This document shows positions 102 through 19,214 of a stretch of DNA of 64,000 nucleotides, in pieces. Made by a program: the position numbers and the translations under genes. The stretch comes from an uncultured Acidobacteriota bacterium. Lineage in GTDB: Bacteria > Acidobacteriota > Thermoanaerobaculia > Multivoradales > UBA5704. The DNA is taken from the NCBI GenBank assembly GCA_963770895.1, contig CAVYRF010000002.1:1888001-1952000 (forward strand), written 5' to 3'. The notes beneath the pieces are model-generated. The model ran no database searches. It saw only the letters and a program-made list of their open reading frames with translations, and was not told the DNA's origin. The first letter of the stretch is position 1. Every line of letters begins with the position of its first letter.

Positions 102-234
102 GTATTCCGCTTCAGAGCTTCAGACGCCGGAATTAGCAAACGCGCGGGCATGGCGCTCGACCGCTGTCGAGAATGTACTCGGCGGCCGGCGCCTGACCGT
201 CCGCAGGTTTCTCACTGACTTGCCGGAGGTGGCA

Positions 235-3200
235 ATGCGGCACGTGGTTCGAGCGCCCGTGCGGTTCCGTTTCGGTACATCGAGTGCGGCCCGAGCCGGC
301 ATAAGGCTCGTTTTCGCAGCATGCTTCCTCGCAGCTCTGGCCACCACCATGCTGGCCGCCCAGGCCGTGACGCTTCAGGCGAGCGCGGACACCACTCTTA
401 AGCAGGGCAGTCCTGACAAGAGCTTTGGCAGTGAGACGACCCTGACTATCAAGGAAGGCGGCAGCCGCGTTCCCCTCCAGTTCGACGGAGGCGCCATCGC
501 TGCGGCGGTGGGCGGCGGCAGCCTGGCCTCGGCAGCACTTCAAGTCTACGTGGGCGCCAACGCGGGGAATTGGGGTACCACCGGCCGCACCGTGGACATC
601 TATCAGCTCACAACCGCGTGGACGGAAGCCGGAGCGACCTGGAACTGCGCCGCCGATCCGAACCCTGGGCATGCCGGTGTCGGCTGTACGAGTCCCTGGT
701 CCGGCGGCACCCCCGCACAGGGCGCCAACGGCGCGAGCGGAGACGGCGAGGCGACCGACACGGCGCTCATCACGAACGGCACAAGCGGCTGGGTAACGTT
801 CGACGTGACCTCGGATGTCGCGGCGTTTCTCACCGGCACGGCCAATAACGGATGGCTTCTCCAGAAGACGGACGAGGGCCAGGCGGGCCAGATCGATCTC
901 GTCTCGCGGGAGGGAACGGCGGGCCTCGGCCCGAGGCTTGTCCTGGTCAGCCAAAGCGCCACCTCCGATACGGTGCCGCCGTCCCTCGCCATCGTGTCGC
1001 CGTCAGAGCCGGTCTTAGTGAACGTGCCCGCACCAGCGGTCGGCCTCGCCTATCAGGACCCCGGCTCGGGCGTCGACACCTCGACACTTCGAGTCGCAAT
1101 CGACGGTCAGGATTTCACCTCGGGATGCAGCATCGGAGCGCAGGCGGCGAGTTGTCAGGCACCAGTGCTGGCCGCCGGCGTGCACACCATCATGGCGAGC
1201 GTGAGCGATCATGCGGGCAACGTTGCCACGGCCACGACGAACTTCCAGCTACTCCTCGGTCCCGGCATCTCAAGCCTCACTCTCCCAGTGAGTGCCGACA
1301 CCTTCATCACCGCCACGAGCCCCGACCGTGAGCACGGGCGCGCCGCAGTGCTGCGGGTCGAAAAGAGCGGCCCGAGCCGGGCACTGGTCGGGTTCGCCCC
1401 GGGAAGCCTCGCGGCCGCGGTAGCCGGCAACCAGGTGCTTGCGGCCCAGCTTCAGCTCGGAGTCGCCGCGAATGCCAAGAATTGGGGAGCGGCCGGGCGC
1501 ACCATCGGCGCCTACCGGTTGACCACCGCATGGTCCGAGGCGGCGGCGACCTGGGACTGCCCCGCCGACACCAACTTGGACAATGCCGTGCCCGACTGTG
1601 CGGCTCCGTGGAGCGGCGGCTCCTTCGTGGCCGCACCGACTGCAACGGCGCTCATCACGCGGCAGACGACGGGCAGCGTAAGCTTCGATGTGACCGCTGA
1701 CGTGACTGCCTTCTTCGCCGGAACTGCGACCGACGGTTGGCTGATTGCCAAGACCGGCGAAGGGCTTGCGGGGCGGATCGACTTCACCTCGCGGGAGGCG
1801 AGCTCAGGCCAGGCGGCGCAGCTTATCGTCGAGGTGCAGGTTCCGTCGGGCGGTACCACACCGCCGGTGCCCTTGCCCTCCGTTGTGCTCACCCTTCCTG
1901 TCGATGGCGCGGTGGTCAGTCAGCCAACAATAACCGCTACTGGCACGGTAGTCTGCACCAAGCCTCTTGCCAGCGTAACCGTCAACGGTCAGCCGGTGAG
2001 TTTGGCGGGCAACGCTTTCTCCGTGCCGGTAAGCTTGGGCGCCGGCCCGAACGTGGTCCTGGTGCTGGCTACCGATGTCGACGGCAATGTAGGGACTGCC
2101 TCCGCTGGGGTAACACTCGATACCACTCCTCCGATCGTCACGATTCTCCAGCCGCTGGCGGGGGCGCTAATCAATTCCGCGAGCGCATTGGTCCAAGGGC
2201 AGGTGAGCGACGACACCGGAGTCGCCAGCCTTAGCGTCGCCGGCACACCGGTCACGGTCAACAGCGAAGGTAGCTTCCAGGCGCAGGTTGCACTGAACGA
2301 AGGCAACAATTTGATTCCGTTCGAGGCCACCGACGTTGCGGGCAACAAGACGGACCAGGCCCTCAATGTCATCCGCTTCTCGCTGCCGCAGGTCGCGATC
2401 ACCTCGCCGCCCGATCTCAGTTATATTGCCGCCACCACCGTCGCCGTTTCAGGCACGGTCAGTGATCCGGCAGCAACCGTCTCCGTCAACGGCCAGCCAG
2501 CCCAGGTGAGCGGCGGCTCGTTCATGGCACCGGGTGTGCCGCTTCTCGAAGGCGGCAACGTGCTCACCGCCACTACCACCGATTCCAACGGCCATGTGAA
2601 CACTGCCACCATCAATGTGGTTCGCGACCTGACGGCACCCGTCCTGTCGATCGCCTATCCGCAAGACGGTGCCACGGTGTTCAGCCCGACACTCACGGTT
2701 TCCGGGCTCGTAAACGACATCGTCGCGGGGACGGTGAATGCCTCCCAGGTCACGGTGACTGTCAACGGCCAGCCTGCGGCGGTGGCGAACCGTTCCTTCT
2801 CCGCCACACTCTCCCTGATCGCCGGTGAGAACCTGCTTACGGTACGGGCGACGGATGTGAGCGGCAACACTTCGCAGGCCACGGTCACCGTGCAGTTAAA
2901 GCCTGCAACGGTGCCGCGGGTGACGCTCGTCGCCGGCGCCGGCCAGTCGGCACCAATCGGTACGCTTCTCGGCTCTCCTCTCGTGGCGGCGCTGCTGGAT
3001 GGGAACGGGCAGCCGGTGGCGGGACAGAGCCTCTATTTCCGAGTGCGCGGCAACGATGGCACGCTCAACGGCGGACAGCGCGGCGTGACCATGACCACGA
3101 ATGCATCAGGGCAGGCGACCGTTAACTTCACGCTCGGCAGGCACGCCGGCACCGGCAACCAGGTGGTCGAGGCGTTTGCCCCCGGTTTCCAAGGTCCAGC

Positions 3201-4878: not shown

Positions 4879-4892
4879 CGAGGACCCAGCAC

Positions 4893-5717
4893 ATGTTTGC
4901 CTTGACCTTCTCGATCATAGCTCTGGCGACAACCCCTTCAGCAGCGCCGTTAGGCGATCCTGCAAGGCAGGTTTGGTGCACGGCCGCGGCCGAGCAGACG
5001 GCGGTGACGGTGAATGAGCCGATCTGGATGCGCTTGGAATGCGAAAACCGCGGCACGACCGAAGCCTCCTTGGATTTTTTCACTGGTAGCGGCGTTGGCT
5101 GGCGGGTTGTTCCGAACGACGGCACGATCGGGTGCTTCACCAAAGATGATGCGCAAAATGTGCCGCCCAATCGGGTGGCGCTTGCGCCCGGCGATCACGC
5201 TGCCGTGCGCGTGCTGCTGAACCGTTGGACCGGCAGGTTGCAAGCGGGAATGTACCGGACCCGGCTGGTCAGCTGCGCTGGGGCCTATACGATTGACGCG
5301 AAGGGAGGGCAGGACCTGAGTGACGAGGTCACGGTCACAGTCGGCCCTCTCGACGAAAAGCGTCTCGAAAAAGCATGCAAGGATTTGACGAGCCAAGCTC
5401 TCAATCCTGCCGCCGCCGAAAGTGCCAGGCTCCAGGCTGCCGAGGGGCTTTCTTGGATCAATCACCCGCTTGCCGTGCCGTATCTTCAAGAGGTCATGTT
5501 GAAGGGTAGGACGGCCGAGCACCTCGCCGTGCAGGGGCTCAGCCGTATACGAACTCCGGAGGCGGTGCGGGTCCTGGTCGATGCGTTCGACCGAGACACC
5601 TTCTTAGCCATCGAGGTCCGCAACGCACTGTTCAAGATGCATCCTATAGGACTGGACGCAGACCTGCAGAAGCGTGTCACCAACATTTTGAACCATGAGT
5701 TCAAGGTGGCGCAATGA
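4893..5717 (+). CDS. Exported protein with N-terminal beta domain and C-terminal HEAT-like repeats (candidate partner or immunity protein)
   Basis: ATG at 4893 after GAGGA, 14 nt after the previous stop; signal-like N-terminus MFALTFSIIALA; HEAT-like 'RLQAAEGLSWI..PLAVPYL' and 'AVQGLSRI.TPEAVRVL'; ATGA overlap with the next gene. Confidence 0.7.
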   Translation: MFALTFSIIALATTPSAAPLGDPARQVWCTAAAEQTAVTVNEPIWMRLECENRGTTEASLDFFTGSGVGWRVVPNDGTIGCFTKDDAQNVPPNRVALAPGDHAAVRVLLNRWTGRLQAGMYRTRLVSCAGAYTIDAKGGQDLSDEVTVTVGPLDEKRLEKACKDLTSQALNPAAAESARLQAAEGLSWINHPLAVPYLQEVMLKGRTAEHLAVQGLSRIRTPEAVRVLVDAFDRDTFLAIEVRNALFKMHPIGLDADLQKRVTNILNHEFKVAQ

Positions 5718-8700
5718 AAGGGCGCTCGCGACGGTGGATCATCCTCGCGGCATTGACTAGCTCTTTCGCGGCTGTGCCAGCAAACGCGCAGCTCGACAAC
5801 ACCTGCATGGTGAGCGCTCTCAACCGCACAGCCCTGGTGGATGATAGCGGCACCTGGCTGCTTGCAAACGTCCCTGCCGACCTGGGACCCTTGCGCATTC
5901 GCGCCACCTGCGTAGCTCCCGATGGCACCGTGCGCTCTGGCGCCTCTGTGAGTCTCTACACGCTGTCGGCGAACGGTACCGTGAGCGTCAAGGACATCTT
6001 ATTTGCAAGTCCGCCGGCGGTGCCCGAGTCTCTTGGGCTCTCATCGCCAGTGAGCAGCTTCGCATCTCGGGGGCAGACGGCGCAGCTCACGGTGATCGCG
6101 AGCAATCCAGATGGCACCACAACCGATGTTTCTGCCGCAGGGCTCGGTACCGACTACCGAACGAGCAATCCGGCCATCGCCACCGTCGACTCCGACGGTG
6201 TGGTCACAGCGCTGGCCAGCGGCAACATCATCATCAGCGCTACCAACGAAGGGTCGCTGGCGGTCCTCCAGCTTCAGGTGGTCCTCTCCGGCAGCACGGT
6301 GGGAGACGGCATCCCGGACGACTGGAAAATCGCCCATGGCCTTAACCCCAATGATCCTCTGGTCGCCTACGAGGACCCCGACAACGACGGACTGACCAAT
6401 CTGGAGGAGTACCAGAACGGCACCGATCCGAACAATCCCGACACGGATGGCGACGGGCTGTCGGACGGCGACGAGGTGCACCTCTATCACACGAACCCGC
6501 TCCTATGGGACACGGACGGGGACGGGATCTCGGACGGGGTCGAGGTGCGGACAGGCAGCGATCCGCTCGACATGCACAGCTTCAACCTGGCGGCGGCGCT
6601 CTCTTCGATCACGGTCTCTCCGGCCGCGTTCACCTTGGTTTTCAATACGGTGAGCGGCCAGGCGTCGCGGCAGCTCGTCGCCACAGGCAACGTCGTCGAC
6701 GGCCGCACCATCGACCTCTTCAATCCGCTCTACCAGACCCAGGTCGCATCGAGCAACCTCGCGGTCGCGAGCTTCGGAGTGCAAGCAGGGCAGGTGTTCG
6801 CTGGGCAGAGCGGCACGGCGACGGTCACGGTGAGCAACGGCGGCTGGTCGGCCGCGTCCACCGTGACGGTGACGACGTTCTCGCCCACGGCCCTGGCTTT
6901 CCTGCCGCTTCCTGGATTTCAGAATGCGGTGGAGGCGGCAGGCGACTTCGTGTTCGTGGCCTCCGGCGGCTTCGGACTGTCGGTTGTGGATGTGACGAAC
7001 CTGCGAGCGCCGGTGCTCGTCGCTCAGGCGCCCACTCCGGGGAGTGCGAACGACGTGCGGGTTTCTGGCACGGTGGCGTATGTGGCCGAGGATGTCGGCC
7101 TGCAACTCATGGACGTGAGCGATCCGGCCCACCCGGCGCGGCTCGGCAGCCTGAGCCTCCCCGACGGCGACCAAGTGCGTCTGGCGGTAGCCGGCAACCT
7201 GGTCTACCTCGCCGACATGAACTTCGGCCTCCGCGTGGTGGATGTGACGAACCCCATGCAACCGGTCGAGGTCGGCTCGCTCGCGCTCGGAGGCACGCCG
7301 CGGTCGGTCGGTCTTGGCGGCACCGGGCTCGGCGGGTTCGCTCTCACCGGATCGTATGCGGTGGTCGCTTGCGGCGATGGGGGCGTGGCGGTGGTGGACG
7401 TGAGCGATCCGACGGCGCCGGCCCTCGTGGGCGCCACGCCGGACGATGCACCGCGCGCCGGCAGCGTCACGGTGCGCGGCCACTACGCCTACGTGGCCGC
7501 CGGCGAGGAGGCGGTCTACGGCGGCCTGCACGTCGTGGAGCTTGCCGACCCGACGAACCCCGTGGAAGTGGGGGCGAGCGAGGACGACCTCGGGGTGACC
7601 CGTGCGGTGCTCCAAGACGGGTTTGCCTTGGGCGCGCAGTTCTTTCTCGCCGCGCAGGTGGCGATCTTCGATGTTAGCGCCGTGCCTCCGGCCTATACGG
7701 CCGTGCTCGACCTCACGACCTTGCCCGGCGGCGAGGCGGTCGTCGCGCCGCGTGCCAATGACATCGCGGTGCGCAACGGCGCGGTCTTCCTGGCGGCCAA
7801 CGGCGAGCAGCTCGGCGAGTTCGCGAGCTATGCGATCGAGCAGGGCGGTCTCTACACGGGCCTCTTCGAGCTGCCGAACGACGGTGACACGACTCCTCCG
7901 ACCGTGGCCCTCTCCGCGCCGACGGCCGGGTCCTCGGTGATGGAGCGGCTGCCCGTGACGGTGACCATGGCGGCACAGGATGAGGTCTCGGTCACCTCCG
8001 TCGGCATCCTGGTGAATGGCGCCCTGGTCGAAACCCTCTACAAGCCGCCGTACCAGGGGACCGTCCACGTGCCGGCCGGGCAGCCGACCATGACGCTTGG
8101 AGCGGTGGCGACAAACATCAGCGGCGTCCAGGCGACGACCACGGAGACGCTCACCGTCCAGCCGTATCCCTTGCCCGTCGCGACGCTCCTTGCGCCCGTG
8201 CCCGGCCAGGTTTTAATCGACGGCACGCCGCTCACGATCGCGGTTGCGGCGAGCGACGCCGTGGCGGTCACGCGGGTCGAGGTCTATGTGAACGGCGCTC
8301 TCGTCGGCACGGCCTTGACGCCGCCGTACCTCTTTCAGGTCACGCTGCCGCGCGGCTCGGCGACGCTCGCGGCGACGGCGTTCGCATACAACGCTCTGGG
8401 GCCGGGCGCGATGTCGGCGCCGGTCGCGGTGACGGTCCAGCCGGACGTGCCGCCCACGGTTGCGATCTTCTCGCCGGCCGACGGCGCGCAGGTGACCGAG
8501 GGAAGCGTGGTCTCGATCGTCGCAGGCGCGAGCGACCTGACCGGAATCGCAAGCGTGCTCTTTGACCTCAACGGCGTCGAGTTCCAGGGCACCGCCACCG
8601 CACCCTACGTTGCCCAGGTCGTGGCGCCGCCGGCGGGCCAGACCATGGTGCTCGATGTCGTCGCGACCGATGCCGTGAACCTGGCGGCGCAGTCAGCACC

Positions 8701-9730
8701 GGCCACCATCACGAGCGTGGTCGATCCGGGAACGGCCGTGAGCGGCACGGTGCTCGATCCGACCGGCGCCCCGGTCTCGGGAGCGAGCATCGTCGTGGTC
8801 GCGGGCGCTTCCTCGGCGAACGCCACCTCCGCTGCGGACGGGTCGTTTACAGTGAGCGGCCTGCCGACCGGGAGCGGCACCTTCGAGGTGAGCGCGGTCG
8901 CCACGGTGGGCGGCTGCCAGGCGGAGGCCGATGCCGAAGTGCCGCCGCCCCCGCCGGGCCGCAATGAATCGCTCGGCAACCTGACGCTCGTCCGGCCTCC
9001 GGCACCGGAGCCCACGGCCGTGACCGGCGTCGTTGTCGGCGCCGACGGCCAGGGGCTCTCCGGCGTCACGGTGACGGTATCGAGCGTCGACCTGGCGGAC
9101 ACCGCCACCGTCCTGAGCGGTCCCGGCGGCGCCTTCCTGGTGCCGGCCTTCCCCGCGCGGGCCTGGACCCTCCAGGCCGAAGCGACGGCCGTGAGCGGCG
9201 GTGTTCTGCTCTCCGCCGCAAGCGGCCTGCATGGCCCGCACGCGGTCGCGGGCGGCACGACGGACCTTGGCACCCTGACCTTGAGCCCCTATCCCTTCAC
9301 CGGTCCCGATCCCTTGACGACGGTCACCGGCCAGGCCACGAACCTCGACGGCTCACCGGCCGCCGGCGCCCAGGTGGTGATCGACGTAGGTGACGGCCAG
9401 ATCGTCGCGATCTCCGCCTCCGACGGAAGCTTCGCCGTTTCCGGCGTGCCCACCCTGCAAGGCGCGCTGAAGATCACCGCCTCGCTCCACCTGCCGTGCA
9501 ACGTGCTCCTGGTTGCCGGCCCCATGACGGTGAGCGAGCTTGTGGCCGGCGGCCAGACCGCCGCGGGTCTCCCGCAGCTCGTGCCCGACCCAGGGCCGCC
9601 GCCGCCGATCATCTTCGCGATGGCGCCGGTCGAAGGGTGGCCCGGGGAGGGGGAGCGGTGCGTAGCCGCTCCGAGCGCCGCCGACGGATGGCTTGCGACG
9701 CTCACGAGCGCGGCGGAGTTCCTGCGTTGA
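5714..9730 (+). CDS. Giant secreted protein: Big_2 Ig domains, Ca-binding DxDxDG (thrombospondin type-3-like) repeats, LVIVD repeats, Ig-like and carboxypeptidase-regulatory-like domains
   Basis: Signal peptide ending ANA; 'DPDNDGL', 'DTDGDGL', 'DTDGDGI'; 'GLSVVDVTN', 'GLRVVDVTNP', 'GVAVVDVSDP'; 'VSGTVLDPTGAPVSGA' type repeats. Confidence 0.85.
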   Translation: MKGRSRRWIILAALTSSFAAVPANAQLDNTCMVSALNRTALVDDSGTWLLANVPADLGPLRIRATCVAPDGTVRSGASVSLYTLSANGTVSVKDILFASPPAVPESLGLSSPVSSFASRGQTAQLTVIASNPDGTTTDVSAAGLGTDYRTSNPAIATVDSDGVVTALASGNIIISATNEGSLAVLQLQVVLSGSTVGDGIPDDWKIAHGLNPNDPLVAYEDPDNDGLTNLEEYQNGTDPNNPDTDGDGLSDGDEVHLYHTNPLLWDTDGDGISDGVEVRTGSDPLDMHSFNLAAALSSITVSPAAFTLVFNTVSGQASRQLVATGNVVDGRTIDLFNPLYQTQVASSNLAVASFGVQAGQVFAGQSGTATVTVSNGGWSAASTVTVTTFSPTALAFLPLPGFQNAVEAAGDFVFVASGGFGLSVVDVTNLRAPVLVAQAPTPGSANDVRVSGTVAYVAEDVGLQLMDVSDPAHPARLGSLSLPDGDQVRLAVAGNLVYLADMNFGLRVVDVTNPMQPVEVGSLALGGTPRSVGLGGTGLGGFALTGSYAVVACGDGGVAVVDVSDPTAPALVGATPDDAPRAGSVTVRGHYAYVAAGEEAVYGGLHVVELADPTNPVEVGASEDDLGVTRAVLQDGFALGAQFFLAAQVAIFDVSAVPPAYTAVLDLTTLPGGEAVVAPRANDIAVRNGAVFLAANGEQLGEFASYAIEQGGLYTGLFELPNDGDTTPPTVALSAPTAGSSVMERLPVTVTMAAQDEVSVTSVGILVNGALVETLYKPPYQGTVHVPAGQPTMTLGAVATNISGVQATTTETLTVQPYPLPVATLLAPVPGQVLIDGTPLTIAVAASDAVAVTRVEVYVNGALVGTALTPPYLFQVTLPRGSATLAATAFAYNALGPGAMSAPVAVTVQPDVPPTVAIFSPADGAQVTEGSVVSIVAGASDLTGIASVLFDLNGVEFQGTATAPYVAQVVAPPAGQTMVLDVVATDAVNLAAQSAPATITSVVDPGTAVSGTVLDPTGAPVSGASIVVVAGASSANATSAADGSFTVSGLPTGSGTFEVSAVATVGGCQAEADAEVPPPPPGRNESLGNLTLVRPPAPEPTAVTGVVVGADGQGLSGVTVTVSSVDLADTATVLSGPGGAFLVPAFPARAWTLQAEATAVSGGVLLSAASGLHGPHAVAGGTTDLGTLTLSPYPFTGPDPLTTVTGQATNLDGSPAAGAQVVIDVGDGQIVAISASDGSFAVSGVPTLQGALKITASLHLPCNVLLVAGPMTVSELVAGGQTAAGLPQLVPDPGPPPPIIFAMAPVEGWPGEGERCVAAPSAADGWLATLTSAAEFLR

Positions 9731-9765: not shown

Positions 9766-11349
9766 ATGGGCATCAGCCGGCGGCGCTTGCTCGAAGGCAC
9801 CGCCGCGCTCACGGGCCTCATCGTGGCGCACGGGGCTGGTGCGAGCCCGGTCGATCGAGCGCCCGGCGGCGGCGCCAGGGAATCGGCGCGCGCCGCCGCA
9901 GCACGGCTCGAGGCGGAGCTGCCAGAGCCCACCCACGCCACAAACGGCGACGAAACCGCGCTGCCAGGCTGGATCGCCTGCTATTCCAAGGGACTGCCTC
10001 ACAATGCGGAAGGCGAGGTGGACCCAGCGGCCTATCGGCTGCTCCTGCGGGCGATCGCAAGCCGCGACCCGGCCGACTTCGAGTCCATCCCGCTCGGTGG
10101 CTTCGTGAAGCTCGCGAACCCCCAGGCCGCCCTGGCCGAGAACCTCATCGGCCCCGATCCGGGCCGCCTCGATCTCGTCCCTCCGCCGCGCTTTGCGAGC
10201 GCCGAGCAAGCATCCGAGCTCATCGAGCTTTACTGGCAGGCGCTCCTGCGCGACGTGGCCTTCGAGGACTACGAAACCCACCCCTTGGCTCAGCGGGCGG
10301 CGGCGGACCTGTCGCGCCTGGCCGATTTCAAGGGACCGCGGGCGGCGGGCGGCGCGGTCACGCCGCGCACGCTCTTCCGCGGCGCCGGTGCGGGTTCTTT
10401 GACCGGCCCCTACCTCTCGCAGTTCCTCTACCGCGACGTCTTCCTGCCACCGGTGTGGGTGAAGCAACAGGAGCGCACGGCCGCCGCCGGCATCGACTTC
10501 ATGACCCGGCACGACACGTGGCTCGATTGCCAGAACGGCGCCCTGACCGGGGTGAACCGCTTCGACCCGCACCCGCGCTTCGTCCGCAACGGCCGCGATC
10601 TCGGCGAATGGGTGCACCGCGACTTCACCTACCAGGCGGCGCTCGACGCCTGCCTGGTGCTCCAGAAGCTCGGCGCGCCCCCGAGCGGCGCCAACCCCTA
10701 CAAGCACTCGCGCACCCAGACCGGCTTTGCCACCTTCGGCGCGCCCTACCTCTTCTACCTGCTCGCCGTGGTCACGCAGGTGGCGCTCACCGCCTCCTGG
10801 TATCAGAAGTGGTGCGTGCACCGCAGGCTGCGCCCGGAGGAGTTCGCCGGCAGGGTGGAGATGGTCCGCGCCGGCCGCGCCGCCTACCCGATCGCGCCGG
10901 CGGTTTTGGACAGCGAAGCGCTGGCCGAAACGCTCCGGCGCCACGGCGCGGCGCTCCTGCCGCAGGCGTACCCGGAGGGCGCGCCCACGCACCCCTCCTA
11001 CCCGGCCGCGCATGCGGTGATCGCCGGCGCCGGCGTCACCGTGCTGAAGGCTCTCTTCGACGATTCGCACGAGTTGCCGAATTCCGTGGTCGCCGCCCCC
11101 GATGGCCTCAGCCTCACGCCCTACGCCGGGCCACCTCTTACCGTCGGCGGCGAGCTCGACAAGCTCGCCTGGAACGTTGGCATGGGACGCGATTTCGCCG
11201 GCATCCACTGGCGCTCCGACGTGGCGGCCGGGATCGAGTTTGGCGAACGGGCCGCGGTCGCGGTATTGCGTGAGATGAAGCTCACCGGACACGAGGTCTT
11301 CGCCGGGTTCACCCTGCGGCAATTCGACGGCCGGCGCGTGGCGATCTGA
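9766..11349 (+). CDS. Tat-exported vanadium-dependent haloperoxidase (bromoperoxidase-like)
   Basis: MGISRRRLL twin-arginine signal; vanadate-site motifs WYQKWCVHRRLRPE, HPSYPAAH, GRDFAGIHWRSD; 'ELIELYWQALLRDVAF' typical of the algal/cyanobacterial-type family. Confidence 0.9.
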   Translation: MGISRRRLLEGTAALTGLIVAHGAGASPVDRAPGGGARESARAAAARLEAELPEPTHATNGDETALPGWIACYSKGLPHNAEGEVDPAAYRLLLRAIASRDPADFESIPLGGFVKLANPQAALAENLIGPDPGRLDLVPPPRFASAEQASELIELYWQALLRDVAFEDYETHPLAQRAAADLSRLADFKGPRAAGGAVTPRTLFRGAGAGSLTGPYLSQFLYRDVFLPPVWVKQQERTAAAGIDFMTRHDTWLDCQNGALTGVNRFDPHPRFVRNGRDLGEWVHRDFTYQAALDACLVLQKLGAPPSGANPYKHSRTQTGFATFGAPYLFYLLAVVTQVALTASWYQKWCVHRRLRPEEFAGRVEMVRAGRAAYPIAPAVLDSEALAETLRRHGAALLPQAYPEGAPTHPSYPAAHAVIAGAGVTVLKALFDDSHELPNSVVAAPDGLSLTPYAGPPLTVGGELDKLAWNVGMGRDFAGIHWRSDVAAGIEFGERAAVAVLREMKLTGHEVFAGFTLRQFDGRRVAI

Positions 11350-11409
11350 GAAGCCGCGACCCGGCAGCGCGCAAGGGTCGACGGCAAAATCGACGTCGGG
11401 GGTCCGGCG

Positions 11410-11655
11410 CTCGGTAGCGGTTCGCGGCCTCCACGGTGCGGCTGTCGCCGACAGCCAGCAGATCGGCGTAGGCGAGGACGGCCGGCATCACGCCGCGCTC
11501 CTCCCCGGCGTCGGCGAAGTGCCAGAGCTTCTTCAGCACCTCGACCTGGCCGTCCTCCGCTCCTTTGAGGCGCTGGTGGATCAGCAGCTTTGCCGGGACC
11601 GCATCCGCGTACAAGGTCAGCGTCCCCGGTTTCAGGAAGCCCGTCAGCCGCGCGC
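11410..11655 (-). pseudogene. C-terminal fragment of a type IV TA AbiEi-family antitoxin
   Basis: Translation 'LTGFLKPGTLTLY...GQVEVLKKLWHF...PAVLAYADLLAVGDSRTVEAA' resembles the AbiEi_2 C-terminus; N-terminal part and cognate AbiEii toxin absent; boundaries approximate. Confidence 0.6.
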
Positions 11656-11911
11656 ACGGCGGGCACATCGCCGAGCACCGCCGCTGCTGAAGTTGCCCCG
11701 ATCGCGACGCGCCTGACGGCGCGTGCGCAATCGGGCCGGGGGGGCGGACGAGGCGTCTTGCCACGCAAGAGGGTTTGCGGCGATGAGGGCGTAGGGAATC
11801 TGGCCGAACGGCCGCCGGGCGAAGGAGGCCGCCGTCGACGTGCTCATCGAGCGCTTGTTTGGCCCGCCGCCACCTGCTGATCCGGCTGCTGACTCGACGG
11901 CTGGATCGCAC

Positions 11912-13426
11912 TCAGGGTGCAGGGACCCCAAGATGGGGTGAGCGACCGAGGAGTCGCAGCGCTGCGCGCGCTTGCTCGACCGTGGCCGCCTCCTTACGGG
12001 CCGCGTCCAGGAAGAGCCGCAAGCTCACCAGGGTTTCGCGCTCGATCCCCGCAGCGGCTAGGACCCAGCTCATTTCCGCTGCCAAGCGGCGCACTTCGTT
12101 GAGGCGCCCTTCCTCCAGGTTGAGGATGGCCAGCTCAAGCGACACGATCGCCCTGGCAAGGCTATTCCGGTGCGCCGCAAGCTGGTTGCGCACCTCCTCG
12201 AAGGCAGCGCATGCTTCCTCGCGGCGTCCGCAGCCTGCAGCCACGCGTCCGCTCAGCCACCTGACGCGAACCAGATCGAGGTCGTTCCCGTGGTCGAGAG
12301 CCACCTGGTGGAGGCGAGACAGCTTGGCCTCGACCTCGGCATGTAGGCCCAGGTGGCACAGGTTGACGCAAAGGTTGAAGTCCAGCGACCAGGCAAGATG
12401 AGGCTCGCCGCCGTTCGCGATCAGCGGCGCAGCTTCGCGCAGGACCTCGACGGCGGCGGCCGCGTCTCCGGTCTGCTCCAGCATAACGGCGCGGCTAAGG
12501 AGGATCCGGCCTACCGCAATGGGCGGCGCCAACGTTGCGGCGCGGTCCAGCAGGTCGAAGGCCGCCTCGAACTGGCGCGCGTCGCGCCGCAGCGAGGCTT
12601 CCAGATCGAGCAGGCGCCACTCTTCGAGAAGACCGCTGCTTTCCTTCGCGCCCTCGCGCCACAACCGCCAGACGGCTGCAAACTCCGCCCCTGCTCCCGC
12701 AAGGTCGCCTGCCACGCGCCGCGCATTGCCGACAAACGCCCGCGCGTAGGCCAGCAGCCTTCGACGCCAATGCTCGTCAACCGGAGCGAGCTCTGCCACC
12801 AAAAGGGCGAGGTGGGCCAGGTCGAGGGCTGCCGCTGGCGTCTTCAGGGCTGCCCGCGCGCTCTCATCGCACAGCCGCTCTGCCAGCGCCCAGGTCTGGA
12901 ACTCGCTCCCCTGCTCGACCAGCCAGCGGCGCTCGGCGGCAGCGCAAGGGGCGAGCCTGTCCCAGGCGCGCGCCGCGTCCTCGCGGTCGCGTGGCGACGG
13001 CTCCTTGCGGTGCATCGCCGCGACCTGTGCAGCCTCTGCGGAGCCGGTGAGCGCCTCGAAGCGGGCAAAGGCCGTAGCGATGGCGCCGCGGACGGCGGCC
13101 TCCAGAGCTGGCTGGTCTTCCGGTTCAAGGTCATCGCCGGGTTGAAGGTGGTCCAGCGGCGGGCGGCCATCCGGCGCGGCGGTGGCTTTCTCGCGGGCGG
13201 CGCGCAGGATGGGCAGCAGTCGGCGCTCGACCCATGGGATGGGTAGGCCCACGGCAGCCGTGATCCGCTCCAGGGCGTCCGGGGTCAGGGTGTCGCCCGC
13301 CTCGTATCGTGACACCGAGTTCTGCGAAAGGCCGGCCGCCCTTGCAAGGTTTGTCTGATCCCAGCCGCGCAAGGCGCGCAGCACCTGCACCAGCAGCCGT
13401 CCTTCCTCGTCTCGATAGGGGGGCAT
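11912..13426 (-). CDS. XRE-HTH plus TPR-like helical repeat transcriptional regulator (paralog A)
   Basis: ATG at 13426 preceded by GAGGAGG; HTH 'LRALRGWDQTNLARAAGLSQNSVSRYEAG'; helical repeats 'TWALAERL', 'GNARRVAGDL', 'EWRLLDLEASLRRD', 'SLELAILNLEEG'. Confidence 0.85.
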   Translation of the reverse strand: MPPYRDEEGRLLVQVLRALRGWDQTNLARAAGLSQNSVSRYEAGDTLTPDALERITAAVGLPIPWVERRLLPILRAAREKATAAPDGRPPLDHLQPGDDLEPEDQPALEAAVRGAIATAFARFEALTGSAEAAQVAAMHRKEPSPRDREDAARAWDRLAPCAAAERRWLVEQGSEFQTWALAERLCDESARAALKTPAAALDLAHLALLVAELAPVDEHWRRRLLAYARAFVGNARRVAGDLAGAGAEFAAVWRLWREGAKESSGLLEEWRLLDLEASLRRDARQFEAAFDLLDRAATLAPPIAVGRILLSRAVMLEQTGDAAAAVEVLREAAPLIANGGEPHLAWSLDFNLCVNLCHLGLHAEVEAKLSRLHQVALDHGNDLDLVRVRWLSGRVAAGCGRREEACAAFEEVRNQLAAHRNSLARAIVSLELAILNLEEGRLNEVRRLAAEMSWVLAAAGIERETLVSLRLFLDAARKEAATVEQARAALRLLGRSPHLGVPAP

Positions 13427-13570
13427 GGCGTCGCCTCCTCGGCGGTATAGGGTCCTATTCACGGAAAAAGTGTATTTTTAACCTCTATCATCGACCGGGA
13501 TCGTCATGGAGCAGGCCCCGCTCGCGCCACTTCCGGCCGCGAGCGGCGGTGCCACAGGAAAGGACTTCTC

Positions 13571-13996
13571 ATGTGCTACAGGAACTCCCGTCGCATTCTC
13601 GCCTCCGCGGTCGTACTTGCCCTGGCTGTGTGGGCGGGCGCGCCCACCTTGCTGACAGCTGCCCCAGCTTCCGCCTTCGGCCTCCCGGCGGCCCAGAGCG
13701 CTCAAGGTCTCGACGTTCTGAACCAGGTGCGCCTCTGGCTGAGCACCAGATGGCCTTGGACGGGGTCCAGCGCCGATGGTGCTGCATCGCGACATGCCGC
13801 TAGCGTGAAGCCGCAGAATTCTTGCTCGTCTGACCCGAACGGCCAGCATTGCACCAATGCCGTCATCCCGCAGAACGCCTGCGCGTCGGATCCGAGCGGC
13901 CAGCATTGCACCAACGCCCTCATCCCGCAGAACTCCTGCGCGTCCGACCCGGACGGCCTGCAATGCAGCAATGCTGTCAGGCCACATCATTCTTGA
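13571..13996 (+). CDS. Small exported precursor peptide with three tandem Cys-x8-Cys 'DPxG' cassettes
   Basis: AGGAAAGGA RBS; basic then hydrophobic N-terminus with A-x-A sites; cassettes VKPQNSCSSDPNGQHCTNA, VIPQNACASDPSGQHCTNA, LIPQNSCASDPDGLQCSNA; divergent from paralog A. Confidence 0.8.
   Translation: MCYRNSRRILASAVVLALAVWAGAPTLLTAAPASAFGLPAAQSAQGLDVLNQVRLWLSTRWPWTGSSADGAASRHAASVKPQNSCSSDPNGQHCTNAVIPQNACASDPSGQHCTNALIPQNSCASDPDGLQCSNAVRPHHS
13805..13975 (+). repeat. Three imperfect 57-bp coding tandem repeats
   Basis: CCGCAGAA recurs at 13811, 13868 and 13925 (period 57); many differences are at third codon positions. Confidence 0.9.
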
Positions 13997-14133
13997 GGCT
14001 CGGACCCGAGCGGCAGTCAGCGGTGCCCGGATTAGCTGAAGCAGCATGCGAGTGCGGCGCATAGGGTCTGACGCAGCGCCCTGACGGTGAACGCGTCCCT
14101 TGTGGCAGCCATCCTCGATTCCTCGCCGCACCA

Positions 14134-14158
14134 GCCGGAGCCCGGTTGCGGCTCCGGC
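14134..14158. terminator. Hairpin between the convergent peptide and regulator genes
   Basis: GCCGGAGCC, 7-nt loop, GGCTCCGGC; no U tract. Confidence 0.35.
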
Positions 14159-14173
14159 GCCTCGGCTGGTCTC

Positions 14174-16030
14174 TCACGGTACGCGCCCCCAAAGGCGCGG
14201 TGATCGACCGAGGAGACGCAGCGCCGCGCGTGCCTGGTCGATCGTCGCCACCTCGCGGCGCGCAGCCTCGCAAAAGAGCCGCAGGCTCGCCAGGACTTCG
14301 CGCTCGACGCCCTCGGCGGCGACGATCCAGCTCATCTCCTTCGCCAGGCGGCGAACCTCGGCGAGCTGCCCGTCCTCCAAGCAGAGGACGGCGAGCTCAA
14401 GCGACACGATCGCAGAGGCAAAACCGTTGCGATGGGTCGCAAGCTGCTCCCGCACTCGCTCGAAGGCGGCACGTGCCTCCTGCCTGTCACCCATGCCCCC
14501 CGCGACACGGCCGCTCAGCCAGCCGATACGCACAAGATCCAACTCGTTGCCGAGATCGAGCGTTAGCCGCTTCAGGCCCGGCAGCTGAGCCGCCGCCTCG
14601 GCGAATTGACCGAGGTGGCAGAGATTGACGCTCCAATTGAATGCCAGCGACCATTCCAACGCTGGCTCGCCGAGTGCGCGCACCAGGGGTGCGGCCTTTT
14701 GCAGCGTGACCAATGCGGCAGTCGCCTCACCTGCCTGCTCCAAAGTGACGGCGCGCTTGAGCAGTATGCGCCCAGCGGCGATCGGCGGAGCCCCGGCCAT
14801 GGCCCGGTCGAGGAGGTCGAGAGCTGCTGCGAAGCTCCGCGTATCGCGGCGCAAGGATGCCTCCAGATCGAGCAGGCGCCATTCGGGAAGGATGGCGGTC
14901 GGGTCTCCGGTGGCACCTTCGCTCCAGAGCCGCCAGACAGACTGCCACTCGGCGCCGGCCTGTGCCAGGTGGCCCTCGACGCGTAGTGCATTGGCCAGAA
15001 ATGCTCGGGTAAAGCCTTCCAGCCGGCTGCGCCATGCGTCCGAGCCGGTGATTATCCGCGCCGCGGCGCTTGCAAGCCGCGCCAGCTCCAGCGCCATGGC
15101 AGCGCTTCTGCGCGCGCAACGCGCGCTCTTTTCGGCCAGCCGCTCGGCGAGTGCCCAGGTTCGATACTCCAGGCTGTGCCCGACAAGCAGCCGGCGCTCC
15201 TGGGATGTGCTCCGCTCCAGCCGCTGCCACAACCTGCCGGCCTCGGCGCGAGCGCGGGCAATACGGTGGGTGGCGGCCTGGGCGCGGATGCAGGACTGCG
15301 TGAGGATGGCGACCTCGGTCGCCAAGTGGGCCGCAGCCTCCCGCCCACGGCAGGCTTGCAGCGGTGCGGTGGCTCCGGCGACGGCACTGCCGTTCACACC
15401 TGGACGAGCAAGGCCGAGGGCCGCGATGGCGGCGAGCGCAAGATCGGCTTCGGCCGGGGTGTAGTCCATTGCACCCACCAGGCCCTCGAACCGCGCGCGC
15501 TTCAGCTTGCGACTGCCGCGCTCATAACCCGAGATTTGGGAGTTTGGCACACCGGCCGCCTCTGCCAGGTCCTGTTGGGTCCAGGCCAAGCGCTGGCGTA
15601 ACCAGCTGAGGGCGATCCCTAGCGCCTGCGACGGGCGGGCCAGCGCGTCCTGGCCGGGCGCGCGGCGGGCCTGGAACAAGGGTTGGGCCAAGCCGGCGAC
15701 CTCAACCGCGAGATGCGCCGCGGTCTGGCGGAGGTAGCGGACTTCCAGCGGCGGCGCGGCGGCTGGATGGGACGGTTCGCAGGCTTCGGCTTCACGGCCG
15801 ACCGCGACCACGACCATGTGTACGAGGTCGACTTCGGAGGGAGTGTAGCCCATGATCTCGGCGAGCTGCCGGAGGCGCCGGCAACTGAGCTGACGGGTGC
15901 CCCGCTCGTAGGCCGAGGAGTGGGCCTTGGAAATGCCAGCGGCCTTTGCCAGCTGCCGCTGCGTCCATCCGGCGTGCTCGCGTAGCCAGGTCAGGACGAT
16001 GCAACGGGACTGCGGGGGAGTCCTAGTCAT
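14174..16030 (-). CDS. Double XRE-HTH plus TPR-like regulator (paralog B)
   Basis: Two HTH units 'WLREHAGWTQRQLAKAAG..AYERG' and 'WLRQRLAWTQQDLAEAAG..GYERG'; C-terminal half closely parallels paralog A (EWRLLDLEASLRRD, LDLVRIGWLSGRVAGG, LRLLGRSP). Confidence 0.85.
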   Translation of the reverse strand: MTRTPPQSRCIVLTWLREHAGWTQRQLAKAAGISKAHSSAYERGTRQLSCRRLRQLAEIMGYTPSEVDLVHMVVVAVGREAEACEPSHPAAAPPLEVRYLRQTAAHLAVEVAGLAQPLFQARRAPGQDALARPSQALGIALSWLRQRLAWTQQDLAEAAGVPNSQISGYERGSRKLKRARFEGLVGAMDYTPAEADLALAAIAALGLARPGVNGSAVAGATAPLQACRGREAAAHLATEVAILTQSCIRAQAATHRIARARAEAGRLWQRLERSTSQERRLLVGHSLEYRTWALAERLAEKSARCARRSAAMALELARLASAAARIITGSDAWRSRLEGFTRAFLANALRVEGHLAQAGAEWQSVWRLWSEGATGDPTAILPEWRLLDLEASLRRDTRSFAAALDLLDRAMAGAPPIAAGRILLKRAVTLEQAGEATAALVTLQKAAPLVRALGEPALEWSLAFNWSVNLCHLGQFAEAAAQLPGLKRLTLDLGNELDLVRIGWLSGRVAGGMGDRQEARAAFERVREQLATHRNGFASAIVSLELAVLCLEDGQLAEVRRLAKEMSWIVAAEGVEREVLASLRLFCEAARREVATIDQARAALRLLGRSPRLWGRVP

Positions 16031-16507
16031 CAGTCACCACGGCCAGCAGGAGTGCCCCCCGGGCGCCAGCTCCACTTGGGAAGTCCTCATTTGCGAACCT
16101 GCGCGACCAGAACAAAGATCCTCCATGGCGATGCAGAGGATTTTACGCGAATGCTCTCGTTGCGCAAGAGCAACCAAATGCTTTTTCGTTGCAAACAGAT
16201 ACATCTCCTGGTCATCAAGGTCAAAAATTCTCCTCTTGCGTGTATGGCAAACCTTGCGCAGTACTGAGTGGGGCGTGCGGGACGTAGAGGCTTCTTCATC
16301 TGGGGTAGAGCGTCGCGGGTGGAAACCTCGATACCTCACCGGCGGGCGCCTACCGCTGGGGCGTCAATTTGCGTGAATATGTGTATTGCAAACTTTTTTA
16401 GGCTTTGCGAGCGCGCCAGGTCGTCGCCTCACTATTCTCCGTGGCGGGTAGACATCGGTGGCGGTTATCGGGGCCGCGACTCTCGTCTGCCATAAGGATG
16501 CCCTGAG

Positions 16508-17134
16508 ATGCGCGACCATGATCCACGAAACGAATGCGCCGGCCACGTCGAAATCGACCTCATGGCGCGGCTGCTGACCGCTCACGCGCAGGACGAGGAC
16601 GTCTACCAACGCTTGCTGCCGCACATGGTCGGCCAGTGTCCCGAGTGCAGGCAGCTCCTTGTCGAGTTGGAAGAGCTGCGCCGTGAAGCGGCGGCGCCGG
16701 ATGCCCTGATTGCCGCGACCGAGTGGCCGGCGGCACCCGGCCTGTGGGGGCGGCTGGCGCCGCTCCCCTTCGAGGAACAGCTGCGGGCAGCCGCTGCGGA
16801 CGAAACCCTTCACACCTGGGGGCTCTGCCGCCTGCTCCAGGTCAAGAGCGGCGGCGAGGCGCGCGAGCATCCGGCGGCGGCCGGCCGGCTTGCCCAGCTG
16901 GCCTTGGTGATCTCCGAGCACCTGGCCAAGGCGCAGGAGACCGCGGAGCTGGCCAAGGAGCTGAGGGCCATGCCGCGGGTGGACCGCCTGCATGCTGCCG
17001 CCCCAGCGCGCCCTGACCGACCGTCTGCTGAAGCACCACGGCGAGTTCGAAGACCCGATCGGTGCCGCACGCGCATGAGCGAGGAGCTGCACTTCCGCCG
17101 CGGCCAGATGGTGCTGAGCGATGGGCGCTCCTGA
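16508..17134 (+). pseudogene. Truncated anti-sigma-type Zn-finger plus TPR-like protein (paralog C)
   Basis: 'HMVGQCPEC' H-x4-CxxC finger; 'LWGRLAPL...LHTWGLCRLL...AGRLAQLALVIS' matches the first helical block of paralogs A, B and D, after which similarity stops; may still be a short functional gene. Confidence 0.55.
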
Positions 17135-19214
17135 ATCCGTATCAGGCGACGCCTGTCCCGCCAACGGCGCTACGCCCACGCCCAACCACGCAGGCAAGGG
17201 ACGTCATCGCGAGCGGCCCGGTGCTGCCCAGGGCTTAGTGGCGCAGGCACTGACGCGCCGCCATCGCCCACCGTTGGGCCTTGCGCTTTCGACCTTGCGG
17301 GCCATTATGGGATGGTCGCAAACGGCTCTTTCCAAGGCCAGCGGCGTCGCCACCAGCCAGATCTCGCAATACGAAAGTGGCGCAATACGCTTGACTCGCG
17401 CTCGCTTCAACGAATTCGGCGCGGTCATGGGTGCCAGGGAGGGACTTGGCGAGTGCGCAGTCGCGACCTGCGCGCTGTTGGCTGCCGTAGCTGCCCCGGC
17501 GGGCTCAGTGCCGCCAGGCGATCTGACCCATGACGAGCGGCAGCAAGTCGACGCGTTCGTATTAAACATGTTGCCTGCGTTGGCGGAACTTGTTCAGGAG
17601 CACGCCACCGCAACGATCATGATGCGGCGCGTCGACGTAGCGCAGCAGGAAGCTGAAGCACATTGGCACGCGCTGGCGACGCTCTCCCATCAGCAGCGGC
17701 GCCAACGATTGGAAACCGGTTTGCATCTACAAACCTGGGCCATGTGCCTACGCCTGTGCGACGCGAGCGTTGCCGCCGGCGCGCACGGCGCCGCAGAAGC
17801 CATGCAGCTTGCTGAGCTGGCCGTGCGCGCAGCGCAACTGGCGCGGGGTGACGCTGGCTGGCTGTTGCGCTTGCACGGCTACGCGCGCGGATTCCTTGCC
17901 AATGCGTTTCGGTTGAGAGGGGATCTTGCGGCGGCCGATGCAGAGTTCGCTGCGGCAACGCGCCAGTGGGAGGACGGGCATCAGCCCGCGGAATTCGCGC
18001 TGCCGGAATGGCGATTCCTCGACCTGGAATCGTCCCTCCGCCTTGCGCAAAGAAATGGGCCTGCCACAGTGACCCTGCTCGACCGAGCCATCGCCCTTGC
18101 TCCCGCAGGGCAAACTGGCCGGTTGCTGGTCAAGAAAGCGACGGCCTTACGGCTCGCCGGCCAGGTCGACGCTGCGCTCGTTGCATTGGACGCGGCGGCG
18201 CCCCTGGTCAAGTTGCGGCCAGACGTGCAGTGGATGGTGCAGTATCACCAGGTAGCGTGTTTGTGCCAGATCGGGCGCTACCGAGAGGCCGACGAGTGCC
18301 TGGAGAACGTGGGTGGTGCGCTTGTCGGTGAGTCGACTTTGGACATCCTCCGGCGAATGTGGCTCACGGCACGTGTGACCGCAGGTCAGGGCGATCCGCG
18401 ACAAGCGATCGCCGATCTGGAATGGGCGCATACGGAGCGCATGCAGTTCGCCGGTCGCTATGAGTTGGTCCTGGTGTCGATCGAGCTGGCGATTCTCTAT
18501 CTTGACGAAAGGGTGGGGGACTCGGAAAAGATTCATCGCTTGGTTCAAGATGCCTTGGAAATCGTCCAATCTCGATGGAGCTCGCGAGGCCTGACCACCA
18601 GCCTTGGCGACTTAAGTCAGTCAGCTGGGAAGCTACGTCAGCTTCACGAAGCCGTGGAGCTTCTGAGGGTGGAAAATTGGGTCTTCGAGCCCTTGACGGC
18701 GGGCGGTAGCCAGCGCATGGCGCACATCCCCCTTCTGGAACAGGCCGATACGGTTTCGATTCCCGACGAAATGAGCGTCCTGGTGCGCTTGGTGCGCGCA
18801 ATCCCTGGAATGAGCCAGGAGGGGATGGGCACCGCAGCGTCGATCGACCGCACTACGATCAGCCGCTACGAGACGGGCGACATGATTCCCTCGCGGGTGC
18901 ATCTCGGGCGCCTTGCCTCTGCTGCTGGTATCTCACTCCCGCTGTTGGAGGGTGTGCTGCTGCCGATGGTCCGCGTTGTGTGTGCCAGGAGGGCCTGTTT
19001 GCACAGACCCTGGTTGCTGGCGCAGCAAGCTGGTGAGGTGGCTGCTGCGTTCGATCGGCAATTGGTTGCCACCATGCGCGCAGCCGTCGCCACGTTTGCA
19101 GCGACTCTTCGGTGTCGTCCTGCTGTGGCTGCTCAACCTTGCCGGCCATCGGATGTACCGCCGTGCGACGCACAGCAGGCGCCGGCGCAAGGCGCGGGCG
19201 AGATGGCCAGATGA
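17121..19214 (+). CDS. XRE-HTH plus TPR-like plus second C-terminal HTH regulator (paralog D)
   Basis: HTH 'LRAIMGWSQTALSKASG..SQYESG'; 'QTWAMCLRLCDAS', 'EWRFLDLESSLR', 'SIELAILYLDE'; second HTH 'GMSQEGMGTAASIDRTTISRYETG'; start uncertain. Confidence 0.75.
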   Translation: MGAPESVSGDACPANGATPTPNHAGKGRHRERPGAAQGLVAQALTRRHRPPLGLALSTLRAIMGWSQTALSKASGVATSQISQYESGAIRLTRARFNEFGAVMGAREGLGECAVATCALLAAVAAPAGSVPPGDLTHDERQQVDAFVLNMLPALAELVQEHATATIMMRRVDVAQQEAEAHWHALATLSHQQRRQRLETGLHLQTWAMCLRLCDASVAAGAHGAAEAMQLAELAVRAAQLARGDAGWLLRLHGYARGFLANAFRLRGDLAAADAEFAAATRQWEDGHQPAEFALPEWRFLDLESSLRLAQRNGPATVTLLDRAIALAPAGQTGRLLVKKATALRLAGQVDAALVALDAAAPLVKLRPDVQWMVQYHQVACLCQIGRYREADECLENVGGALVGESTLDILRRMWLTARVTAGQGDPRQAIADLEWAHTERMQFAGRYELVLVSIELAILYLDERVGDSEKIHRLVQDALEIVQSRWSSRGLTTSLGDLSQSAGKLRQLHEAVELLRVENWVFEPLTAGGSQRMAHIPLLEQADTVSIPDEMSVLVRLVRAIPGMSQEGMGTAASIDRTTISRYETGDMIPSRVHLGRLASAAGISLPLLEGVLLPMVRVVCARRACLHRPWLLAQQAGEVAAAFDRQLVATMRAAVATFAATLRCRPAVAAQPCRPSDVPPCDAQQAPAQGAGEMAR

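Follow-up and report, generated by a model that had tools for sequence, protein, structure and literature searches.

The window analysed here, a stretch of 64,000 nucleotides (nt) from an uncultured Acidobacteriota bacterium, carries between positions 11912 and 19214 a group of regulatory genes around a gene for a peptide precursor of 141 amino acids (aa). The precursor gene is divergent from regulator A across a 144-nt gap and convergent with regulator B, as described in the original prediction, which had been made from the sequence alone; the gap to B is 177 nt. Both regulators join one or more helix-turn-helix (HTH) domains to a helical domain predicted to consist of tetratricopeptide repeats (TPRs), and a third intact relative, regulator D, lies further along the same stretch (Table 1). 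The triad of regulator, peptide and regulator is a conserved unit that is found many times over in a single family of soil bacteria, and this recurrence suggests that diderm bacteria use a peptide signalling system not described before. The layout singled out in the original prediction, an HTH–TPR receptor beside a small exported propeptide, is real and strongly conserved, being found at 11/11, 14/14, 6/6 and 69/73 loci in the four sets of sequences described below.

The source genome of the window (G000, 8.16 Mb) contains approximately 39 regulator loci and 11 identified peptide genes, three of which encode variants without cysteine, and the further peptide copies each lie between two regulator genes. 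When all six frames of this genome were searched with a regular expression for open reading frames (ORFs) holding at least two peptide cassettes, only five were found, every one of them 144–211 bp from a regulator locus; the expression for a single cassette gave 113 matches, and 20 of them are no more than 800 bp away from one of the 39 regulator loci. A four-paralog profile matched 17 of the 24 same-family genomes and none of 16 genomes from other families of the order, and at loci fetched from related genomes a regulator homologue was present in the 1.5-kb flank in 11 of 11 cases. The sole match in a phylum sample of 300 genomes, searched at E ≤ 1e-6, was one genome of the same family (G018), which has 14 peptide loci, all 14 beside a regulator. 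Gaps between paired regulators in three genomes missed by the first profile (G002, G009 and G011) encode a family peptide in six of six cases, so the first profile under-counted. Across 36 modules, the end of the convergent regulator lies 25–290 bp from the peptide stop codon in 35, and the divergent regulator is also visible, within the sequence available, in 22.

We also scanned 185,579 species genomes blindly with a degenerate DNA pattern for one cassette (G-C-x-I-D-P-N-G-x-C); the results given here are for 80 of 115 stretches. An Acidobacteriota lineage, mostly Thermoanaerobaculia, labels 73 of the 80, and 73 of the 80 matches lie in ORFs that match the hidden Markov model of the peptide, with a regulator within 785 bp for 69 of these 73. 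Two of the four family ORFs with no regulator nearby are close to the end of their stretch; one Thermoanaerobaculia match at the end of its stretch (L115) has a regulator at a distance of 460 bp. A further six matches, in other phyla, fall outside family ORFs, and none of the six has a regulator nearby. The enrichment of DPxG peptides beside homologous regulators, set in advance as a test of the original prediction, is therefore very strong and does not refute it. We also observed one family peptide on a contig labelled Chloroflexi (L086), near the end of the stretch and with no regulator in view, which may reflect a binning error or a transfer.

The regulator family itself matches in 24 of 24 genomes of the same family, with 7 to at least 50 matches each, and in 11 of 16 genomes of sister families, with 1–13 each; its homologues are labelled Thermoanaerobaculia (Acidobacteriota). 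In a quick maximum-likelihood tree, the two regulators of a module are sisters in 10 of 16 modules, and in the remaining six, copies from closely related modules cluster by type, divergent with divergent and convergent with convergent. This pattern suggests that genes of one module have repeatedly been duplicated or converted, presumably between the direct-repeat genes, and the sister pairs would fit joint adaptation to one ligand. An origin of divergent and convergent regulators as two ancient clades was rejected, the labels requiring 13 changes on this quick tree against 14.5 when shuffled. High copy numbers, the frequent sister relationship of the flanking genes and a direct-repeat geometry in which two same-strand paralogs enclose a small gene might instead mark the module as a side effect of cassette duplication, for instance of a repeat that is selfish or prone to recombination, with no functional coupling of peptide and regulator. 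We judge this highly improbable: the triad geometry, the ORFs, the ribosome-binding site and the cassette motif are kept across genera at 30–50% protein identity, which requires purifying selection on all three genes, and no transposase or integrase was found beside the modules.

The gene call for regulator A in the protein database is 504 aa long (P0001), and a GGAGG ribosome-binding site lies upstream of the start at M13 (13426). A is 52% identical to B over 486 aa (E 1e-120) and 36% identical to D over 444 aa (E 4e-44), D being 36% identical to both A and B. The HTH_3 domain (PF01381, cut-off 23 bits) scores 37 bits in A, where it occurs once, 78.3 bits in B, where it occurs twice (E 4e-22), and 54.1 bits in D, with one copy at the N terminus and one at the C terminus; NCBIfam adds to the A–D region only generic XRE and antitoxin-like HTH models. 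A consensus of the sensor domain from 27 paralogs contains the segments LQTWA..ERLC, ANALRV.GDL, EWRLLDLEASLRRD and VSLELA..YL, and thereby recovers the motifs that the original prediction had read from the window proteins. Pfam detects TPRs in A only below threshold (TPR_8, E 0.017), and many homologues carry the precomputed TPR annotations PF13424, PF17874 and PF07719.

The AlphaFold2 (AF2) model of A, built from a 27-row alignment with a predicted local distance difference test score (pLDDT) of 86.6, shows the HTH domain, then a long helix as linker, and paired helices that form a superhelix over residues 157–506. By this model, the sensor domain of A is a TPR superhelix. Fold comparison with Foldseek and VIA-align ranks generic peptide-binding TPR solenoids first, the best score belonging to LGN (Z 22.2 over 287 residues, root-mean-square deviation (rmsd) 4.5, 14% identity), together with complexes of Rap and its pheromone (8rsv, 4gyo and 4i9c; also 8rst and 8rtc) at Z 21–22 over approximately 290 residues and NprR (5dbk and 4gpk) at Z 20.7–21.3. 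The comparison with RRNPP receptors proposed in the original prediction thus gave a TPR superhelix with Rap and NprR among its best matches, tied with LGN. No convincing membrane segment was found in A or B, and AF2 places the most hydrophobic window of A in a TPR helix; on this basis both proteins are read as cytoplasmic.

The peptide gene between them is real. By inspection, residues 1–35 of the precursor form a signal-like N terminus, with two arginines at 7–8, a hydrophobic core and ASA followed by Phe at 33–36, and the maximum Kyte–Doolittle (KD) hydropathy over 19 residues is 2.04, at residue 9. A Trp-rich helix at residues 44–60 (LNQVRLWLSTRWPW) is followed at residues 81–137 by three cassettes of the form PQN(S/A)C(S/A)SDPxGxxC(T/S)NA(V/L)x, each with two cysteines around a DPxG turn. 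This signal-like N terminus and the three 57-nt repeats are in line with the exported repeat peptide of the original prediction. An AF2 model from a 142-row alignment predicts little order apart from helices at residues 3–23 (signal) and 44–60 (Trp-rich), and no globular fold for the cassettes, where the pLDDT is 50–58.

Searched against 1.84 billion cluster representatives (50% identity), a 16-row profile of the peptide family matched 2,205 at E ≤ 0.001, of which 784 reached E ≤ 1e-10; the family statistics refer to the 148 small proteins among the best 150 matches. In the typical member, a signal peptide and a Trp-rich helix precede three G-C-x-(I/L)-D-P-x-G-x-C rings; the median length is 121 aa (range 97–201), and a crude rule finds a signal-like N terminus in 142 of the 148 representatives. 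Precursors carry three cassettes in 99 cases and four in 36, and the final cassette ends no more than five residues from the C terminus in 134. Nine-residue rings (C-x-x-D-P-x-G-x-C) account for 412 of 473; Gly follows DPx in all 473, and almost every ring has a Gly just before its first Cys. Cassettes of one precursor agree at ring position x1 in 54% of pairs, a value reached by none of 500 shuffles, compared with 9.8% for pairs from different precursors. The window peptide and eight family representatives gave no Pfam or NCBIfam model above cut-off, and we found no paper on the family. The window peptide matched nothing, itself included, in a word-index search of 5.8 billion proteins, and the profile search later showed the large family; the ESM Atlas gave only Acidobacteriota clusters at 0.86–0.88, under the meaningful level.

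The three Cys-less variants (G000:C2:502517-502900, 1826438-1826791 and 1827035-1827415, all on the minus strand) have one C-terminal DEGxxADPYGG each; they keep the signal peptide, the Trp helix and the same geometry between regulator pairs, and two of them stand in tandem. The profile search also found two long metagenomic proteins of secreted type, P0205 (783 aa) and P0223 (731 aa). Each starts with an N-terminal domain and has VDEWDGEVVKR repeats at the C terminus; in between stand approximately 30 x-DP-(N/D)-G-(R/K) units in tandem, most of them lacking Cys. Neither has a Pfam or NCBIfam match.

A leader with a conserved helix, repeated cores bracketed by Cys and ring positions that vary strongly between precursors are also what might be expected of a multi-core precursor resembling a ribosomally synthesized and post-translationally modified peptide (RiPP) or a bacteriocin, with its enzymes encoded elsewhere and the flanking genes acting as pathway regulators. 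We consider this improbable. The flanks of the window module and of eight other regulator clusters in G000 contain no recurrent modifying enzyme, transporter or exporter, dedicated protease or immunity gene, and a RiPP biosynthetic cluster was rejected on the ground that no modifying enzyme recurs there. The signal peptide moreover looks like the ordinary Sec type, which is atypical of RiPP leaders, and by inspection the mature region is neither cationic nor amphipathic beyond the Trp helix. We also considered the NCBIfam family NF047412 (sig_GCG_CRPN_rpt), on which no paper was found and which likewise comprises small secreted proteins with a signal or prefix followed by short Cys-containing repeats. 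Membership was rejected: the best score is 18 bits (E 0.002) against a cut-off of 24 bits, seven of eight members of the peptide family have no match, and the matches in G000 lie away from its peptide loci.

The gap between regulator A and the peptide gene contains an AT-rich element, GGAAAAAGTGTATTTTTAACC, which occurs only four times in the genome at up to four mismatches, always in a divergent gap between an A-type regulator and a peptide gene. Its core, GTGTATTTT, is found again upstream of peptides in other genomes and genera. The inverted repeat closer to the gene overlaps a GGCCA(A/C)T..GGCC-like motif approximately 45 nt before the ATG, and this GGCCA(A/C)T...GGCC motif or short palindrome is present in most of 15 aligned upstream regions. 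We regard the AT-rich element and the palindrome as candidate promoter or operator sites. A GAAAGGA stands before the ATG in five of the five listed G000 paralogs and in most orthologs. RNAalifold gave no consensus structure for the 15 upstream regions, and scans of 13380–14220 for sigma-70 promoters and intrinsic terminators returned no sites.

The system that this module most calls to mind is the HTH–TPR branch of RRNPP or RRNPPA signalling (NprR–NprX, PlcR–PapR, AimR–AimP and Rgg–SHP). Shared features are an N-terminal XRE HTH with a C-terminal TPR superhelix, an adjacent small gene for a propeptide that by inspection looks Sec-exported and has its motif at the C-terminal end, many paralogous pairs per genome, and a module without dedicated processing or export genes. 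Excerpts of one survey give the RRNPP signature as a SignalP-positive propeptide of 10–100 aa encoded next to a receptor of 250–500 aa with TPRs (PMC10075063); TPRs in the predicted fold of the receptor and direct neighbourhood of propeptide and receptor genes (144 and 177 nt) are both found here. The Acidobacteriota module differs in belonging to a diderm phylum rather than to Bacillota and phages, in flanking its peptide with two paralogous receptors, one convergent and one divergent, and in the three to four Cys-bracketed DPxG rings and the conserved Trp-rich pro-helix of that peptide. In their excerpted text, the large surveys treat peptide signals of TPR receptors as a hallmark of Bacillota and mobile elements and are limited to those groups (PMC10075063, PMC9765709). 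Our literature searches on RRNPP systems in Acidobacteria, on TPR/propeptide systems in Gram-negative bacteria and on peptide quorum sensing in Thermoanaerobaculia returned only Bacillota or unrelated work, supplements lying outside the search.

Rap–Phr systems offer a second comparison, since Rap is among the top structural matches of the modelled TPR domain of A and excerpts of one study document tandemly duplicated pheromone propeptides in phi3T and phi105 (PMC11343458), which would parallel the several near-identical candidate pheromones in tandem within one exported precursor. The differences are that Rap lacks an HTH and acts on response regulators, that Phr peptides are linear penta- or hexapeptides without Cys, and that Rap–Phr occurs in Bacillota and their phages. 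The eukaryotic LGN/Pins protein shares the peptide-binding TPR superhelix, comes from an unrelated organism with an unrelated function and illustrates only the generic solenoid fold. No RRNPP-specific Pfam or NCBIfam model was matched by the window proteins, and marginal profile matches were limited to RapH (E 0.007) and PlcR (E 0.009, HTH only). By detectable sequence homology, the regulators are not members of the RRNPP families.

The reading that we favour, tentatively, is that the peptide is the ligand of its flanking regulators and forms with them an RRNPP-like peptide/receptor pair. It starts from what the analysis shows, namely the gene architecture, the exported-type N terminus, the cassettes, the HTH and TPR fold, the adjacency and the upstream elements. 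The peptide gene would be transcribed from the conserved 144-nt divergent region, and export by Sec would remove the signal peptide. From this point on we infer the steps: in the periplasm, each pair of Cys would close a ring of 9–10 residues round the DPxG turn, and proteolysis of the spacers would then release three near-identical short cyclic peptides, with the Trp-rich helix serving as a pro-region. The peptides would accumulate outside and be re-imported by an oligopeptide permease; G000 encodes two OppA-type binding proteins, which are necessary for such re-import and not specific to it. Inside, the concave TPR groove of both flanking regulators may bind the peptide and so alter DNA binding by the HTH, with feedback on the module promoter and on a further regulon as the output. 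The approximately nine triads of G000 could in this way each provide one channel, told apart by the variable ring positions. Besides the adjacency and the fold, this reading draws on traits that resemble those of a propeptide, namely the signal-like N terminus, the cassettes close to the C terminus, their lack of a predicted globular fold and flanks free of recurrent modifying enzymes or transporters. It also draws on a diversity that would suit separate channels, seen at ring position x1 and in the many modules of each genome.

Taken to its full extent, this reading describes diderm cell–cell signalling in Acidobacteriota (Thermoanaerobaculia) through HTH–TPR receptors that arose independently of the RRNPP systems of Bacillota or have diverged from them beyond recognition, with disulfide-closed DPxG nonapeptide rings in triplicate per precursor, a co-evolving receptor pair for each signal and at least 10 parallel channels per genome. 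We hold this extended version to be possible, on balance rather doubtful. Co-folding of the TPR domain of A (155–516) with the three cassettes (79–141) scored 0.01 against a mark of 0.32, a result that, obtained without controls, is uninformative either way. Among the sequencing runs matching 11900–16100, none is of RNA type, and six of DNA type contain 0.08–0.37 of the sampled words.

Several observations weigh against a peptide ligand. The cytoplasm would reduce a disulfide ring, and peptides of 1–2 kDa cannot cross general porins freely. The near-fixed number of cassettes could mean that the intact array of three to four is the functional unit, and the near-invariance of the DPxG core and its flanking G-C across modules favours cross-talk or a structural or maturation role over a code. 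Because of the repeats in P0205 and P0223, the DPxG motif is not restricted to small precursors. The fold matches to Rap and NprR are level with those to unrelated eukaryotic TPR proteins, and against solved structures the 27-paralog profile matched only XRE HTH domains (ClgR, 9e-8; HipB), with weak generic TPR matches besides. The adjacency counts within a genome are not independent because much of the arrangement has been inherited by duplication. The proteins also exceed the sizes in the RRNPP signature, the peptide at 141 aa (family median 121) against 10–100 and the regulators at 504 aa (A) and 618 aa (B) against 250–500, as stated in the excerpts of PMC10075063.

Some of these points would be accommodated by one-way control, in which the HTH/TPR pair regulates the exported peptide in response to another cue, either a different ligand or a protein partner bound by the TPRs, and the peptide acts outside the cytoplasm without feedback, perhaps as a multivalent surface, matrix, metal-binding or glycan-binding factor or as an inter-bacterial effector. 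Close adjacency and conserved upstream elements suit a regulator–target pair equally well; the constant cassette number, the invariant core and the long proteins with approximately 30 DPxG repeats speak for it, as does the fact that MalT-type TPRs (PF17874, precomputed on some homologues) bind non-peptide ligands. We nevertheless find this explanation unlikely, if worth serious attention. The AF2 model gives the cassette array no folded domain, the single C-terminal DEGxxADPYGG of the Cys-less paralogs looks more like a short signal at the C terminus than like a multivalent array, and genes for immunity, transport or modification are not recurrent neighbours of the modules. Two regulators for one product of approximately 120 aa, at least nine times per genome, would also be unusual for simple control of a target.

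Few gene families are as expanded as this module of RRNPP logic in its soil lineage, which has an outer membrane and is abundant yet poorly studied. Should the peptides be signals, they would open peptide quorum sensing in diderms, raise the question of how the outer membrane is crossed and offer a ready set of orthogonal receptor–peptide pairs. If they are not, they still make up a large family of secreted cyclic-loop peptides that lacks annotation and has pairs of regulators dedicated to it.

Table 1. Features of the regulator and peptide stretch, in window positions
Feature	Position	Strand	Description
Regulator A	11912-13462 (ORF, 516 aa); likely start M13 at 13426	-	Divergent from peptide gene
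Parts of regulator A	HTH_3 at aa 28-77 (516-aa ORF); long-helix linker; TPR superhelix at aa ~157-506		Pfam HTH_3, E 3.5e-9; AF2 model
Divergent control region, A/peptide	13427-13570	.	144 nt
AT-rich element GGAAAAAGTGTATTTTTAACC	13463-13483	+	21 nt; candidate promoter/operator
Inverted repeat CCGCTCGCG-N11-CGCGAGCGG	13518-13546	+	Perfect 9-bp arms
Ribosome-binding site GGAAAGGA	13557-13564	+	For peptide gene
Peptide precursor gene	13571-13996	+	141-aa ORF
Three tandem repeats	13811-13979	+	57 nt each; Tandem Repeats Finder (TRF) period 57, 3.0 copies, 82% matches
Regulator B	14174-16030	-	618 aa; two XRE HTH and TPR; convergent with peptide gene, gap 177 nt
C	16508-17134	+	208 aa; deletion remnant
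Regulator D	17121-19214	+	697 aa; HTH, TPR, C-terminal HTH

In the window, the stretch from A to D lies between genes for large surface proteins (220–9730) and a cluster of nonribosomal peptide synthetase (NRPS) and polyketide synthase (PKS) genes (19233–43916). The GC content at third codon positions is 0.70–0.81 in the regulator and peptide stretch compared with 0.93–0.94 in the NRPS genes. The suggestion that the module controls the neighbouring NRPS/PKS or surface operon found no support, because the other modules of the source genome have unrelated neighbours: they adjoin GNAT, GDSL lipase, CoaE, asparagine synthase, DinB and MacB-like genes, and none lies beside an NRPS, which led us to reject the NRPS/PKS link as a general feature. 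A GNAT acetyltransferase (PF13302) and an unannotated ORF of approximately 470 aa occur near two regulator clusters (L001:6189-8711; L005:55-945 and 6199-7614), and GDSL lipases near two others (L002 and L009).

On the minus strand, 19233–46572 holds a hybrid NRPS/PKS of four large genes, with condensation–adenylation–thiolation (C-A-T) modules and one ketosynthase–acyltransferase (KS-AT) module, next to which stands a MacB/FtsX-type permease (43948–46572). The region 220–9730 encodes two very large exported proteins, one with CBM96, Glucodextran_B and Big_13 domains and the other with LVIVD repeats, bacterial TSP3 repeats and Big_7 domains. An ORF at 11309–11911 (minus strand) abuts the stop codon of regulator A and matches the C-terminal half of AbiEi_2 (PF09952, E 1.4e-17), with conservation limited to residues 84–168. 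A fragment 88% identical to it adjoins another module (G000:C2:4266977-4267231), where it and the regulator lie on opposite strands.

The original prediction had counted C as a fourth paralog with the same sensor domain and had described fusions of that domain to one, two or terminal HTHs or to a Zn finger. The shared domain holds for A, B and D (52% and 36% identity), as do the fusions, with one HTH_3 domain in A, two in B and one at either end of D; the Zn finger of C (H-x4-C-x2-C) matches no Pfam or NCBIfam model. BLASTP finds no similarity of C to any of the three (E 0.4–0.7), and C, like the 141-aa ORF, has no Pfam match. Only its residues 74–139 can be aligned with the sensor domain, over the first 66 columns (hhalign probability 95%, E 2.6e-8). 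Paralogs of C elsewhere in G000 run on into a long helical domain, and comparison with these longer proteins identifies the window copy as a remnant with an internal loss of approximately 1.3 kb, which retains approximately 150 N-terminal residues and a 25-residue C-terminal trace in another frame (16992–17066). The intact paralogs are therefore three, not four.

The paralog family of C is a separate one, in which an N terminus rich in H and C (LPHMVGQCPEC) is followed by the helical domain; further members lie at L004:5509-7529, apparently frameshifted, and L009:5994-7082. D-type regulators (HTH-TPR-HTH) have four copies in G000, the three others being 72–75% identical to D, and no peptide gene lies next to them. 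Both in the window and in L004, a C-type gene neighbours a D-type gene. Between its first HTH and its TPR domain, D has a hydrophobic stretch rich in Ala at residues 112–130 (KD 1.90).

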